Shown here: positions 10,961 through 18,790 of the stretch, piece by piece
Position numbering within the stretch: the stretch's first letter is position 1
How the letters are laid out: each line of letters begins with the position of its first letter
Assembly: GCA_038207725.1 (NCBI GenBank)
Contig: JBBQZN010000006.1
Coordinates: forward strand, 4,824 to 68,823
Origin: Bacteroidales bacterium
Lineage (GTDB): Bacteria; Bacteroidota; Bacteroidia; Bacteroidales; VadinHA17
Direction: 5' to 3'
Length of the DNA stretch: 64,000 bases
The notes under the pieces: model-generated
The model's database searches: none
The model's input: only the letters and a program-made list of their open reading frames with translations
Told to the model about the DNA's origin: nothing
Program-made: the position numbers and the translations under genes

Positions 10961-12064
10961 ATGTTTCTTATGAAATCATTTCAACTCCTGGCACTTGCGT
11001 TCATACTGATTATCAGTAGTTCAGCTGGCATAAAGCAATCGAAAACAGTTGTTTCAATAAAGGATGGCCAGTTCTATATCAATGGGAAAATTACATATGA
11101 AGAAAGGTACTGGAACGGTACAAAAATTGAAGGATTACTTATGAATTCACGAATGGTTCAGGGAATTTATGATGATGTTAATACTGAAACAACTGATTTA
11201 TGGGTTTATCCTGATACCAAAAAGTGGGATGCAGAGCGTAATAACAATGAGTTTATTAAAAACATGAGTAAATGGAAAAGTTACGGACTGCTTTCATTTA
11301 CAATAAATATGCAGGGAGGCAGTCCTCAGGGATATTCTGCCTCACAGCCATGGAATAACTCAGCATTTTCTAATGATGGATCGCTCAAGCCGGAATATAT
11401 GAAAAGACTTGAGAAAATACTGGATAAGGCAGATGAACTGGGTATGGTCCCGATTCTCGGACTGTTCTATTTCGGTCAGGATGAGAGATTAACTGATGAA
11501 AAAGCAATCATAAATGCAGTTAACAATACAATTGAATGGCTCTTTGTTCGCGATTACCGCAATATTCTTATAGAGATTGATAATGAATGTAATGTGAATA
11601 AGTATGATCATGATATCCTTAAACCTGAAAGAGTGCATGAGCTCATCGAACTTGCAAAAAGTAAGGAGAAGAATGGTTTCAGGTATTATGTGAGCACGAG
11701 CTATGGAGGCGGTGCGATACCTCAGCCAAATGTTGTAAAAGTATCTGATTTCATACTATTGCATGGCAATGGCGTAACAAATCCCGACAGAATAACTGAA
11801 ATGGTTGAAAAGACTAGAAAAGTAGAAGGATACAAATTACAACCTGTTTTATTCAATGAGGATGACCATTTTAACTTCAAACAGGAACATAATAACTTTA
11901 CAGCAGCAGTAAAAAGTTATGCTTCATGGGGCTACTTTGATTACAGGATGAAGGATGAAGGTTTTTCTGAAGGTTATCAGAGTGTTCCAGTTGACTGGGG
12001 CATCAACTCTGAAAGAAAAATTCAATTCTTCGGGCTGCTGAAAGAGATAACTGGGACAAAATAG
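10961..12064 (+). CDS. putative secreted TIM-barrel glycoside hydrolase (GH5-like NE motif)
   Basis: Signal peptide and an IEIDNECN motif resembling the GH-A clan acid/base Asn-Glu. The function is tentative. Confidence 0.5.
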   Translation: MFLMKSFQLLALAFILIISSSAGIKQSKTVVSIKDGQFYINGKITYEERYWNGTKIEGLLMNSRMVQGIYDDVNTETTDLWVYPDTKKWDAERNNNEFIKNMSKWKSYGLLSFTINMQGGSPQGYSASQPWNNSAFSNDGSLKPEYMKRLEKILDKADELGMVPILGLFYFGQDERLTDEKAIINAVNNTIEWLFVRDYRNILIEIDNECNVNKYDHDILKPERVHELIELAKSKEKNGFRYYVSTSYGGGAIPQPNVVKVSDFILLHGNGVTNPDRITEMVEKTRKVEGYKLQPVLFNEDDHFNFKQEHNNFTAAVKSYASWGYFDYRMKDEGFSEGYQSVPVDWGINSERKIQFFGLLKEITGTK

Positions 12065-13634: not shown

Positions 13635-13636
13635 CG

Positions 13637-13710
13637 TGATTCCGGTGCGACTCGAACGCACGACCCACAGCTTAGAAGGCTGTTGCTCTATCCAACTGAG
13701 CTACGGAACC
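13637..13710 (-). tRNA. tRNA-Arg (anticodon TCT)
   Basis: The reverse complement GGTTCCGTAGCTCAGTTGGATAGAGCAACAGCCTTCTAAGCTGTGGGTCGTGCGTTCGAGTCGCACCGGAATCA folds as a cloverleaf. It has a 7-bp acceptor stem, GTTCGAGTC T-loop, anticodon loop CTTCTAA, and no encoded CCA. Confidence 0.93.
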
Positions 13711-13799: not shown

Positions 13800-15575
13800 T
13801 CAGGTTGTTTTCATGTAGTTAACAAGTCCTTTTTTATCTATTATATACTTCAGTTTATCCGGTAGTGGTTCAAAATGAAAAACCTCTGCCCCTATCCTGA
13901 TATATCCTTTGTCGAAATGCACTTCGGCTTCCATACCTCTTTTATATGCATCAACTGCTTCCCTGTGAACAATGAGCAGCAATCCCTGATTAATTGATGA
14001 CCTGTAAAAGATTCTATTCACCGATTTTACAATAACAGCCTTTATTCCTATATATGCCAAACCTACTGCAGGATGTTCTCGTGAACTCCCGCAACCAAAA
14101 TTATCCCCGGCAATAATAAGGTCATCCTTCTTAGCATTTTTGCTGAACGATTTGTCAAAGTCCTCAAAAAGCAACGGGACTATTGAAGCAGGATCGGTAC
14201 TTAAAACATTGTAAGTATGTTTTCCGGAAAACATCTGATCGGTATTCAGGTTATCAACATCGGAATAATCCCAGACGTTTCCTGATCTCCTGTCATCAGT
14301 CTCTTTTATTTCAAATGTTATACTCTGTTCTGATTTATAGGGGAATATGTCGTTAAAACCACTGCCACGGGGATCAGTTATCTTTCCTTCCAGTGCAGAA
14401 GTTGCTACTGTACCCGGAGATGCAAGATATATTGCGGCCTCCTTATTTCCCATTCTTCCCGGGAAATTTCTATTTGCTGTAGATATTACAACATGTCCGT
14501 TTGCAGGGATTCCCAGTCCTGTTCCCAGACAAGGTCCGCACGATGGTGTAAGAACACTTGCACCGGCATTAATAAAAACAGAAATCAGTCCCTCTTTAAT
14601 TGCCTGCAGGTAAATTTCAGCTGAGGCCGGTATAATATTCAGCTGAAATCCGGGTTTAATACTCTTTCCTTTTAGTATTCCGGCGGCAATACGGAAATCC
14701 TCTATTCTCCCATTAGTACATGTTCCGATAAGTCCCTCATGCACAACTATTCCGACAACTTCAGAAACAGATTTTATATTATCTACATTGTGGGGAGCCG
14801 CAACAACCGGGAATATTTCGCTTAGATTTATCTCAATCTCCTTAAAATAGACTGCTTCTGGATCAGCCCATACACCTTCTATATTATCATTAAGGAAATC
14901 AGACAAAACTTTATCAGCAGGAAAGACGGCATTCTTCGCCCCCATTTCGGATGCCAGGTTTGCAATTGTCATGCGGTCAGAAATGCTGAGTGATTCTACA
15001 CCCTCACCATGGTATTCGACAGACATGTAATTAGCACCATCAGAACCTATCATCCCAATAATCCAGAGAGACAGGTCTTTAGCAGAGACAAAAGCAGAAA
15101 GTTTTCCAGTAAGAGTGATCTTTACAGATTCAGGAACCCTGAACCAGGTTTCACCTTTCTTCCATATTCCGGCAGATTCTGTACGATCTATTCCGGCAGC
15201 AAAAGAATTAAATGCACCGGCAGTTGAAGTATGACTGTCGCTTCCAACAATAAGCATTCCCGGTCGAGCATGGTACGACATTATCTGATGACATATTCCC
15301 CTTCCGGCATCATAGAATTTTTTAATACCTTGATCAGTAACTATATTCCTGATTTCCTGATACTGTGTTGCCAAACCTGCATCAGCCGGTGGAGCGTTAT
15401 GGTCGAGAACAACAAGCATCTGATCGGGATCAGAGACCATTTCTCCCCCCATTTTTTTGAAGGTTTTATATATACTGGAGGTATTATCGTGGGTCAGAAT
15501 AATATCAGGGCGGGCAAAGACTATTGCACCAGCCGGAGCATTAAATATCTTCTCTGCGAATGTTTGTGGTTTCAT
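13800..15575 (-). CDS. aconitase-family dehydratase, fused large (LeuC-like) and small (LeuD-like) domains, paralogue 2
   Basis: Fe-S ligands GTCTNGR and PSCGPCLG, plus the swivel-domain motif GDNFGCGSSREH. The start was set at ATG 15575, giving an ATGA overlap with the upstream stop. Confidence 0.85.
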   Translation of the reverse strand: MKPQTFAEKIFNAPAGAIVFARPDIILTHDNTSSIYKTFKKMGGEMVSDPDQMLVVLDHNAPPADAGLATQYQEIRNIVTDQGIKKFYDAGRGICHQIMSYHARPGMLIVGSDSHTSTAGAFNSFAAGIDRTESAGIWKKGETWFRVPESVKITLTGKLSAFVSAKDLSLWIIGMIGSDGANYMSVEYHGEGVESLSISDRMTIANLASEMGAKNAVFPADKVLSDFLNDNIEGVWADPEAVYFKEIEINLSEIFPVVAAPHNVDNIKSVSEVVGIVVHEGLIGTCTNGRIEDFRIAAGILKGKSIKPGFQLNIIPASAEIYLQAIKEGLISVFINAGASVLTPSCGPCLGTGLGIPANGHVVISTANRNFPGRMGNKEAAIYLASPGTVATSALEGKITDPRGSGFNDIFPYKSEQSITFEIKETDDRRSGNVWDYSDVDNLNTDQMFSGKHTYNVLSTDPASIVPLLFEDFDKSFSKNAKKDDLIIAGDNFGCGSSREHPAVGLAYIGIKAVIVKSVNRIFYRSSINQGLLLIVHREAVDAYKRGMEAEVHFDKGYIRIGAEVFHFEPLPDKLKYIIDKKGLVNYMKTT

Positions 15576-17416
15576 ATCTTTTTGTGTGTATCTTCCTGAT
15601 TTCCCAGCAATCCGCCTTTCTGCCATATTTCTAACTGGACTTCAGAAAATGGTTCGGCTTTTTCGGATATCTCAGTACGTAGATTTTTTATTTCACCTGT
15701 TTTAAAATCAATCTGAAGAATATCTCCATCAACAATATCTGCTTCGTGCAATGTTTTCCACATAATAACAGGCAAAGCAGCATTGATGGCATTACGTTCA
15801 TAAATGGCTCCAAAGGATTCGGCAATAATCGCACTTATCCCAAGTGCAAGGAAGCAATCGACAGCCTGTTGCCGGGAGCTGCCGCAACCGAAGTTTTTCC
15901 CGGCAATTATTATATTTCCCGGCTTAACATTCTTTGAAAAATCCTCAAATCCTTTCATATTATTGAAGGCATATTTGCCCATTTCCTTTGGATCAGTAAT
16001 GGCAAGGTATCGGTTATGGAAAATCATATCGGTATCTATATTATCTTTATTAAGCACCCATACTATTCCTTCAATAACGTTTTTTTTATGTTCTGGTATT
16101 ATTTGTTGAGATGATCTGTTTTGTTTCTCCGATTTTGAGATTAAGGGCTTTTCAAAATTTGCGGGTATTAATGGTATTTTATCAGGAGTTGTAATAAAAC
16201 CTGCAACTGCTGATGCTGCTACCACTTCGGGAGAAGCCAGGAATACACTTCCCTTTCCCTGTTTTCCCGGAAAATTTCTGTTGCCTGTGCTTATTGTAAC
16301 TTCACCCAGACCATTTTGACCTACCTGACCTGCGGCACATCCTGCACATCCTGCATTTGAAACCAGAGCGCCTGCCTTTTTAAACACATCAATCAGGCCT
16401 TCTTTCAGACACATCTTCCATACCTGGTCAGTAGAAGGAACAATTTTAAGAACCACGCCAGGAGCTGTCTTCCTGTCTTTGAGAATTGATGCAGCTATTC
16501 TCATATCGCTTATTCTGCCGTTTGTGCAACTGCCTATGAAAGCTGAATCAATTTTCTGACCATATACTTCAGTTACCGGAACTGTATCATGGGGTTCGCC
16601 TGGTCGCGCAACCATTGGTGTAAAGCTTCCGGTGTCAATGCTGAATTCCTTTTCGTAATTGGCATCATTATCAGCAGTAAATAAAGGAAATTTTACTCTG
16701 GAGCGTTTTGAACAATAATCTATTATCTCTTTGGACTGAGGAAATAAAATTATTATCGCACCCATTTCAGTTGCCATCGATGAAATAGTGATTCTTTCGT
16801 CGAGGCTGAGCTTCTCAGAAACCTCACCTGACATTTCAACAGAGTAGCCAAGAAGCGAATTTGCACCAAATATTTTCAGCAAATTCAGGATAATATCTTT
16901 TGGAGACACATCAGATGGAGTTGAGCCAAACAGATTTATTCTGACAGATGGAGGAATTTTGAACCATACCTTTCCGTTATGCCATGCAGCAGCAATATCC
17001 ATATCGCCCATTCCCTGACCAAAAGCTCCGATAGCGCCAAGGATATTGGCATGTGAATCAGTTGATATAGCAGTACTCCCCGGATGTATATAACCCTCAT
17101 CAATAAGCAGATGTGTTCCTATGCCAGCGTCGATATCATATATTTTTATCTCATGTTCCCTTGCAAAAAGGCGGCAGACATGCTGATTTATTGCATATTT
17201 CTGATCAGAGCCGGTAGGGTTACAGTCGAATGTGAAAATTGTTTTTGAAGGATCGTCAATAGAAAGGTTAAAGTCATTTAGATTTTTAACAACATTGGCA
17301 CCTCCAAAGTCACGGGCTACTCTGCAATCAATTGAAATATCGATTATTTCACCCGGATGAACTACGTCAAATTTTGAATGTGCAGAAAGAATTTTCTCCA
17401 GCAGAGTCATGGCCAT
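15572..17416 (-). CDS. aconitase-family dehydratase, fused large and small domains, paralogue 1
   Basis: Fe-S ligands GSCTNGR and AGCAGCAAG, plus a divergent swivel motif GKNFGCGSSRQQ. A linker of about 45 aa joins the two domains. Confidence 0.85.
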   Translation of the reverse strand: MAMTLLEKILSAHSKFDVVHPGEIIDISIDCRVARDFGGANVVKNLNDFNLSIDDPSKTIFTFDCNPTGSDQKYAINQHVCRLFAREHEIKIYDIDAGIGTHLLIDEGYIHPGSTAISTDSHANILGAIGAFGQGMGDMDIAAAWHNGKVWFKIPPSVRINLFGSTPSDVSPKDIILNLLKIFGANSLLGYSVEMSGEVSEKLSLDERITISSMATEMGAIIILFPQSKEIIDYCSKRSRVKFPLFTADNDANYEKEFSIDTGSFTPMVARPGEPHDTVPVTEVYGQKIDSAFIGSCTNGRISDMRIAASILKDRKTAPGVVLKIVPSTDQVWKMCLKEGLIDVFKKAGALVSNAGCAGCAAGQVGQNGLGEVTISTGNRNFPGKQGKGSVFLASPEVVAASAVAGFITTPDKIPLIPANFEKPLISKSEKQNRSSQQIIPEHKKNVIEGIVWVLNKDNIDTDMIFHNRYLAITDPKEMGKYAFNNMKGFEDFSKNVKPGNIIIAGKNFGCGSSRQQAVDCFLALGISAIIAESFGAIYERNAINAALPVIMWKTLHEADIVDGDILQIDFKTGEIKNLRTEISEKAEPFSEVQLEIWQKGGLLGNQEDTHKKI

Positions 17417-17466
17417 AACCTGATTATTAACGAAACATGCAGAATCTAAGATTTACTTCGCAAAAA

Positions 17467-18315
17467 CTATTTGAACTGCGCCCTGTAATAGCGGGGAGAG
17501 ATGCCTTCTGTTTTGCGAAACTGCTTATTAAAATTGGAAATACTTGCAAATCCGCATTCAATAGCAATATCGTGGACCTGGTATTCAGTTTCGCGCAGCA
17601 GGTAGCAGGCTTTGTTTGTTCTTACTCTGTTAAGAAATTCCACAAAACCGGCACCGCAGTTCTTCTTAAAATAACGGCTGAATGAAAATGGGCTCATGTG
17701 AGCAATTTTTGAGATCCTCTCAAGAGAAATAGGTTTAAAGTAGTTTTCTCTTATATAGTTATAGACATCAGTCATTCTTTTATTGCCTCTCTCATCAAAT
17801 GCAATCCTGTAATTTTCTGAGCAAAGGGTGTTTTTTCTTTCCGATGAGGATAGTATTTTAATAACATTAAAAAAATCAATCATTTTATCAATTCCTTTGT
17901 TATTTACCATATTAACAAGATGTTTTTCAGCAGCTTTCGCATCATCTACTGAAAAGGCAATACCTCTTTCAGCTTCTGTTAGTAACTCTTTAAAGGAATG
18001 AAATTCATGTTGAGACAGCAGAGTATCGCCCAGTGATTCAAGTTTAAAATGGACCATAATCCCATGCTTTTCAGGAAGAGCGTTGTCCTGCCGATAGTAG
18101 TTCCAGCAATGAGGGATATTGCCCGCCAGCAGTATCAAATCATACTGATCGAATAGTTCAACACTATCTCCTACGATTCTTGTCCCATTGCTTAATGTGT
18201 TAAGCACAAGTTCATATTCGGGATGGAAATGCCATAATCCGCCAGAATCATTTACATACTCCGCTCTGAAACCACCACCGTCATCGTAAGAAATTTTTTC
18301 CAGTTCCGCAACCAT
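17467..18315 (-). CDS. AraC-family transcriptional regulator (cupin-like N-domain plus HTH)
   Basis: C-terminal AraC HTH (ISKIAHMSPFSFSRYFKK ... IAIECGFASISNFNKQFRK). The start was moved to MVAELEK (ATG at 18315), because the 72-aa upstream extension in the track looks non-coding. Confidence 0.82.
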   Translation of the reverse strand: MVAELEKISYDDGGGFRAEYVNDSGGLWHFHPEYELVLNTLSNGTRIVGDSVELFDQYDLILLAGNIPHCWNYYRQDNALPEKHGIMVHFKLESLGDTLLSQHEFHSFKELLTEAERGIAFSVDDAKAAEKHLVNMVNNKGIDKMIDFFNVIKILSSSERKNTLCSENYRIAFDERGNKRMTDVYNYIRENYFKPISLERISKIAHMSPFSFSRYFKKNCGAGFVEFLNRVRTNKACYLLRETEYQVHDIAIECGFASISNFNKQFRKTEGISPRYYRAQFK

Positions 18316-18790
18316 CTGAATTAGTTGAATTAAGTGCGCTGTGATCAAAAATAAGCAATATTTTTTCAAAAAAACGAGAATTGATTGTATAATTTTTTTT
18401 AAATTCTTGGTTTTAATTAAAATATTCTGTATATTTGTTATCAAACTCATGCTATATACATTAAGAGGAGATGAGTAAAGGTTGGGAGTGAAAATCAACA
18501 GGATTGTATTGCAGACATTGACTTTCACATCAGGAATCTAAGGTATAGCGCCAGCTAACCATGGTTCCATCCTTTTATCAGACAGTAGACACGGAATTTA
18601 TCTTCACAAGTAAATTCCACTCCCAGGTTTTCACAACCGTCCTTTCTCCTCTTATTTTTTTCAAAAACGAATCCCCCTAGTTTCTGCATTTTATACTTTT
18701 TACTTCACAATTGAAAAATGAACTATCTTTGACGCCTATCAGATAGGGGAATTCTGAAATTTTTTTTTTTAAAAACCTGAATATAGTATA

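Follow-up and report, generated by a model that had tools for sequence, protein, structure and literature searches.

The stretch analysed here, hereafter the window, comprises 64,000 nucleotides of a Bacteroidales bacterium of the VadinHA17 lineage (assembly GCA_038207725.1, contig JBBQZN010000006.1, positions 4,824 to 68,823 of the forward strand) and harbors two adjacent aconitase-family genes, p1 and p2, which probably act in the breakdown of lysine together with partners encoded elsewhere in the genome. Both lie on the minus strand, p1 at 15572..17416 (614 aa) and p2 at 13800..15575 (591 aa), each fusing a large and a swivel domain and each matching Pfam Aconitase and Aconitase_C, in line with an earlier note, made from the sequence alone, that had described two fused genes of about 600 aa. 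An alternative ATG for p2 is located upstream at 15626; orthologues begin at the equivalent of 15575. Fold, serine base and three Fe-S cysteines (C297/C357/C360 in p1, C286/C346/C349 in p2, retained as the note had stated) place both proteins in the [4Fe-4S] aconitase superfamily. They share 35% identity: p2 displays an intact catalytic set (THDN, DHN, DSH, three Cys, SSREH), p1 the signature motifs ARDFGG, FDCN, GKQG and SSRQQ of a rewired active site. The predicted structure of p1 is confident (predicted local distance difference test, pLDDT, of 90) and matches the large subunits of M. jannaschii isopropylmalate isomerase and homoaconitase at template modeling (TM) scores of 0.91-0.93. Its structure-matched domains are separated by a linker of ~33 aa (about residues 412-444; 16085..16183, minus strand), not the 45 aa given before, and the model shows it as disordered (pLDDT <50 for residues 427-441). 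The stop of p1 and the start of p2 indeed overlap in an ATGA (15572..15575, minus strand). In the source genome this overlap goes along with a C-terminus of p1 that is slightly extended; it recurs in just one other of ~24 loci of the genus, the remaining gaps spanning 13-470 nt, so that translational coupling is unsupported as a conserved feature; in other families, p1 and p2 are frequently found on separate contigs.

Although genes of this kind invite annotation as LeuCD, p1 and p2 are not leucine-pathway enzymes. The source genome, a 97% complete assembly whose named close relatives are metagenome-assembled genomes from peat, fen and sediment, contains a full leuA-leuC-leuD-cimA-leuB operon on another contig (C24), answering the earlier question of whether a canonical leuCD exists elsewhere, as well as a separate acn-icd-gltA cluster. 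Scores of the pair fall below both LeuC equivalog cut-offs (TIGR02083, 341 and 406 vs 611; TIGR00170, 171 and 186 vs 560), both proteins branch outside the clade of leu-operon LeuC, and the pair is kept in genomes devoid of leuA/leuB. The leucine pathway is thus ruled out, as the note had supposed. Profile scoring likewise placed both proteins below the cut-offs for AcnA, AcnB, mitochondrial aconitase and AcnD. A recent tandem duplication is ruled out by the tree, in which p1 and p2 form ancient, separate clades.

In agreement with the earlier note, no leu, homocitrate or methylcitrate genes were found between 8 and 26 kb of the window; the real partners of p1 and p2 lie on other contigs of the source genome, where a third dehydrogenase of the isocitrate/isopropylmalate family (contig C15) sits beside an HD-domain gene, near citF and a fused citD-citE. 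We surveyed one draw of 151 Bacteroidales genomes (141 genera, even across families); as related genomes are not independent, counts are given rather than reliance placed on p-values. p1 and/or p2 occur in 64 of these (module genomes), both together in 55. The module dehydrogenase is present in 61 of the 64 and in none of the 87 others, the fused citrate-lyase-like CitDE in 64/64 vs 1/87, and saccharopine dehydrogenase (SDH) in 64/64 vs 24/87. Gene order connects the same components: p1 of other families comes directly after the dehydrogenase and HD genes, the order LKR-SDH-p1 is found in genome G312, and the single contig of G378 carries CitDE-CitF-dehydrogenase-HD-p1-p2-Pcd-LKR-SDH in one same-strand run, with Pcd (piperideine-6-carboxylate dehydrogenase) above its cut-off (789 vs 730). 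Beyond Bacteroidales, HD-p1-p2 is followed by citDE-citF or by ATP-citrate-lyase-like genes. At L032:12953-17083, and likewise in several other families, citDE-citF is placed directly downstream of methylmalonyl-CoA epimerase/decarboxylase genes, which suggests a link to propionate formation. A different, uncharacterised catabolic island is found at L080 and L087, where hydantoinase-like and TonB-type genes have a split LeuC/D-like pair on either side, two pairs in all.

The substrate loop of the partner dehydrogenase, YSSPIVGLR, resembles that of S. pombe homoisocitrate dehydrogenase (HICDH; 3ty3, YSSPIVALR), and this loop type is shared by 44 of 51 orthologue rows; the isocitrate dehydrogenase (IDH) loop SLNVALR and the isopropylmalate dehydrogenase (IPMDH) loop are both absent. 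Its score against the HICDH equivalog is 254 (cut-off 540). Where the NAD motif reads HGSAPDI the protein has HGSAPKY, and the Lys-Tyr pair is an NADP signature, these positions setting NADP preference in E. coli IDH (PMC10574006). As for the lyase, CitE stays far under its cut-off (258 vs 443) and the prosthetic-group motif of CitDE reads RSDC. CitC, CitG and CitX were each found in none of five module genomes searched, suggesting that the lyase probably uses free CoA.

p2 passes the subfamily model TIGR01343 only (470 vs 386) and fails both homoaconitase equivalogs (TIGR00139, 319 vs 530; NF040615, 397 vs 550). It nevertheless clades with TIGR00139-passing proteins (support 99/92) and has the THDN, DHN and GK.TY motifs in common with them. 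We propose p2 as a putative homoaconitase interconverting homoisocitrate and homoaconitate, an assignment resting on the hidden Markov model cut-off of its sister group in a tree that took in no biochemically characterised sequence. In other classes of the phylum, the same dehydrogenase-HD block is accompanied by a TIGR00139-passing protein (862 vs 530) and then by PrpD and CitDEF. A gene for a CstA-family transporter lies inside the dehydrogenase-HD-homoaconitase cluster at L119:7191-8855 and L120:7364-8998.

p1 forms a separate deep clade (support 100/100). Its most striking change, absent from the earlier note, is Asp-Cys in place of Asp-His (Asp64-Cys65; codons 17222..17227, minus strand) at the position of His101 of mitochondrial aconitase, the general acid that protonates the leaving hydroxyl (PMC8184944). 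The Asp-His pair is present in p2 (LDHN) and absent from p1 (FDCN), and across the 60 orthologue rows of p1 that include this position, His never occurs. Furthermore, Arg35-Asp36 of ARDFGG (17309..17314, minus strand) occupy the place of His-Asp in p2 and Lys4-like proteins, and a Lys replaces one Arg. Retained in p1 are all three cysteines of the cluster, the serine that acts as base, Asp-Ser-His, Glu and most ligands, and the protein is 60-73% conserved across families. The note had regarded SSREH as substrate-discriminating and the SSRQQ of p1 as a departure from it; p1 keeps the catalytic Ser-Ser-Arg within SSRQQ, and solved small subunits carry SSREH, SSRES or SSREQ, a variation that rules out SSRQQ as a specificity switch. 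We propose p1 as a putative homoaconitate/homocitrate hydratase. Within the p1 clade, degenerate proteins having lost most or all Fe-S Cys motifs and catalytic residues, possibly aconitase-fold pseudoenzymes, were observed at L176:8949-10715 (genome G327, devoid of the module dehydrogenase and of fused CitDE) and L134:10001-11818. The cluster at L138:9366-15388 combines HD, a single p1-clade protein (ARDFA, DC, SSREH) and an ATP-citrate-lyase-like pair, with no p2. In G022, G026, G029 and G033, genomes of the same genus as the source, the p1/p2 copies are frameshifted or fragmented; several of these assemblies are long-read-like, and sequencing error and decay are both possible.

In other lineages, PrpD largely takes the place of p1: seven of eight p1-bearing genomes tested yielded no PrpD, and p1 is absent from 13 of 14 PrpD-bearing genomes of a second panel. 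Strict mutual exclusivity is not upheld, as G100 has both and G180 neither. In the methylcitrate cycle, PrpD provides a separate dehydratase that resolves a stereochemical mismatch between the carbon-carbon enzyme and aconitase, and an Fe-S enzyme (AcnD, with PrpF) can replace it (PMC5690661). p1 differs from AcnD (86 bits vs a cut-off of 1420), methylcitrate synthase and methylisocitrate lyase were not seen in the module clusters, and the module continues with an oxidoreductase that requires a secondary alcohol. The methylcitrate cycle itself is ruled out, with PrpB/PrpC in none of the clusters; methylisocitrate, moreover, is not oxidisable by an IDH-type enzyme. In fungi and Thermus the path from homocitrate to homoisocitrate needs two enzymes, and (R)-homocitrate is the form on which aconitases act (PMC3556520). 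A pro-3S-type lyase would require (S)-homocitrate, which a normal aconitase would not make, and this need would explain a PrpD or a rewired Fe-S enzyme at the homocitrate-side step.

Collectively, we consider it probable that the module runs the upper alpha-aminoadipate pathway backwards, from lysine via 2-oxoadipate, homoisocitrate and homocitrate to 2-oxoglutarate and acetate. Lysine would be converted to aminoadipate semialdehyde through LKR and saccharopine dehydrogenase, the semialdehyde to 2-aminoadipate by Pcd, a role that a tungsten aldehyde oxidoreductase (AOR) probably takes in the source genome, and 2-aminoadipate would be transaminated to 2-oxoadipate. The NADP-type HICDH-like enzyme would then add CO2 to yield homoisocitrate, p2 would dehydrate it to cis-homoaconitate, p1 would rehydrate this product at the other carbon, forming homocitrate, and CitF with the fused CitD-CitE, as a citrate-lyase-like CoA-transferase/lyase, would cleave homocitrate to 2-oxoglutarate and acetate. 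On paper, lysine + 2-oxoglutarate + CO2 yield 2 glutamate + acetate with reducing equivalents balanced. More tentatively, at somewhat less than even likelihood, the module represents a widespread and as yet undescribed, CO2-incorporating anaerobic lysine breakdown in which the His101-free p1 hydrates cis-homoaconitate from the opposite face, delivering (S)-homocitrate to a homocitrate lyase. Gene content, co-occurrence, operon order, motifs and tree are observations, from which we infer every substrate, the direction, the order of p2 before p1 and the (S)-homocitrate idea.

The source genome lacks Pcd. Of the 38 module genomes lacking Pcd, 35 encode tungsten-type AORs, compared with 7 of the 26 that have Pcd. 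At C55:17325-19511 of the source genome, such an AOR is followed by tungstate-ABC-like and moeA/moaA/moaC-like genes, and similar AORs of ~720 aa are encoded near Pcd in several genomes. The source genome has LeuA and CimA only and no homocitrate synthase, and neither a LeuA/CimA/homocitrate-synthase-like gene nor citrate synthase was found in four module genomes searched. A catabolic direction is favoured by the latter finding, by the presence of lysA in the source genome and in G378, and by the normally one-way aldehyde dehydrogenase of G378.

Several observations weigh against this route. None of p1, p2 and the dehydrogenase passes a homoaconitase or HICDH equivalog cut-off, CitF passes that of ordinary citrate lyase alpha (523 vs 501), and the complete lysine-linked operon is found in G378 only. 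The p1/PrpD exchange has the two exceptions named above. The missing Pcd of the source genome has to be made good by an AOR whose role we deduce from the complementary distribution. lysA over cut-off is absent from 43 of the 64 module genomes, which fits auxotrophy and also biosynthetic use.

The same C7 chemistry could be biosynthetic or two-way, with the lyase acting as homocitrate synthase and a reversible tungsten AOR and LKR/SDH completing a path to lysine, which we consider unlikely. In favor of synthesis, cleavage of the lyase type lies close to equilibrium, AORs work in both directions, and lysA is scarcer in module genomes (21/64 vs 52/87), scarcest in those without Pcd (8/38 vs 13/26 with Pcd). 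Conversely, the aldehyde dehydrogenase in the G378 operon is of the NAD type, normally irreversible, and accompanied by lysA in that genome, the source genome makes lysine by the diaminopimelate route (dapL-lysA-dapF), several module genomes without lysA are missing leuB and leuA as well and look like general auxotrophs, and the ATP-citrate-lyase-like genes of relatives imply cleavage. Distinctly unlikely is a citrate/isocitrate module, that is, a dedicated reductive branch leading from glutamate or 2-oxoglutarate through citrate to acetate and oxaloacetate: citrate needs one aconitase only, the source genome already owns acn-icd-gltA, the dehydrogenase lacks the SLN of the IDH substrate loop, CitE misses its cut-off by far, and the lysine genes of the G378 operon and the Lys4-type homoaconitase of relatives would be left unexplained. 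Its merits are the score of CitF, the NADP-IDH cofactor motif of the dehydrogenase, and some module genomes without any other aconitase or dimeric IDH match.

The earlier note had suggested a catabolic hydro-lyase or isomerase for small hydroxy-acids such as citramalate, dimethylmalate or a tartrate-like compound. Its catabolic part probably holds; context and motifs, however, indicate C7 tricarboxylates of the homocitrate series, and an inducible hydro-lyase for small hydroxy-dicarboxylates, or a reverse chain-shortening of alkylmalates (citramalate, isopropylmalate, dimethylmalate), appears very unlikely. A partner dehydrogenase matching HICDH without the IPMDH loop, a partner lyase of citrate-lyase or ATP-citrate-lyase type and the strict link with saccharopine dehydrogenase all contradict it, even though the nearest solved structures, M. 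jannaschii isopropylmalate/citramalate isomerase and homoaconitase, score equally, the swivel loop of p1 (RYLAI) is similar to the isomerase loop RYLVY, and a C69 peptidase gene is positioned between araC and p1, or replaces their link, in three relatives (L063, L065:8272-9732, L070). Finally, p1 might be a non-catalytic or accessory subunit of a p2 that performs both half-reactions, as its missing general-acid His, the adjacency of the genes in the genus and their joint presence in most module genomes would allow. Retention of the remaining catalytic residues, frequent unlinking from p2, the exchange for PrpD, an unrelated catalyst, and the L138 cluster with a p1-clade protein as its sole aconitase make this highly improbable.

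Exactly 50 nt upstream of p1 and on the same strand, as reported before, an AraC-family regulator is encoded (17467..18315, minus strand, 282 aa), preceded by an AT-rich block (18346..18366, minus strand) that is conserved across the genus and, with its TAnnTTTG-like element, is a candidate promoter. Most genomes of the genus have AraC upstream of p1, and it was not seen beside p1 in the other families examined. AraC does not belong to the conserved module and may control the p1/p2 pair locally; a self-contained AraC-inducible unit, as once suggested, is unsupported, since AraC is adjacent only within the genus and the partners lie on other contigs. The direct neighbors (bioG-like, BrkB, M50 peptidase, tRNA-Arg) reflect genus synteny only. 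The tRNA-Arg(TCT) gene is found at 13636-13710 of the window, 90 nt downstream of p2, and the region beyond is highly variable among relatives, like an integration site. A 367-aa secreted-looking protein without Pfam or NCBIfam match is encoded at 10961-12064.

The proposed homocitrate route can be compared with several known systems. Like the upper alpha-aminoadipate pathway of fungi and Thermus (homocitrate synthase, aconitase/Aco2, Lys4/LysTU, Lys12), the module would devote two aconitase-family enzymes to one isomerisation (PMC3556520), and it shares a sister of Lys4-type proteins (p2), the S. pombe-like dehydrogenase loop and LKR/SDH-type genes. In contrast to that pathway, it has a citrate-lyase-like enzyme and no homocitrate synthase, its dehydrogenase bears an NADP signature instead of the NAD motif of Thermus HICDH, the step on the homocitrate side would fall to a new clade without the His or to PrpD rather than to a tricarboxylic acid cycle aconitase, and its direction is probably opposite. 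Methanogen HacAB and isopropylmalate/citramalate isomerase (PDB 4kp2, 2pkp, 4kp1, 3vba) have the same compact fold (large-subunit TM 0.91-0.93, 33-45% identity), but HacAB alone carries out both half-reactions, whereas p1 and p2 are fused, deeply diverged paralogues, p1 without the Asp-His pair. The front end to 2-oxoadipate is that of saccharopine lysine catabolism (LKR/SDH and aminoadipate semialdehyde dehydrogenase), which decarboxylates 2-oxoadipate to glutaryl-CoA where the module would carboxylate and cleave. From citrate lyase CitDEF, whose CitF, CitE and CitD all have homologues here, the module differs in the CitD-CitE fusion, RSDC at the prosthetic-group motif, and CitC/CitG/CitX not found in the five genomes searched.

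We found no paper on homocitrate lyase, reductive 2-oxoadipate carboxylation or lysine fermentation via homocitrate, in a search that most subscription papers lay outside. The module appears as a putative new variant of aminoadipate chemistry with new enzyme subfamilies. Roughly four in ten Bacteroidales genomes carry it, in a draw even across families, and annotation routinely assigns its genes to leucine and citrate metabolism. Should the proposed route be true, it would add three activities, namely a homocitrate lyase, an NADP-type dehydrogenase that carboxylates 2-oxoadipate and a His-less aconitase whose stereochemistry may be inverted, and it would constitute a new anaerobic lysine-degradation route that changes metabolic reconstructions of protein-degrading anaerobes.

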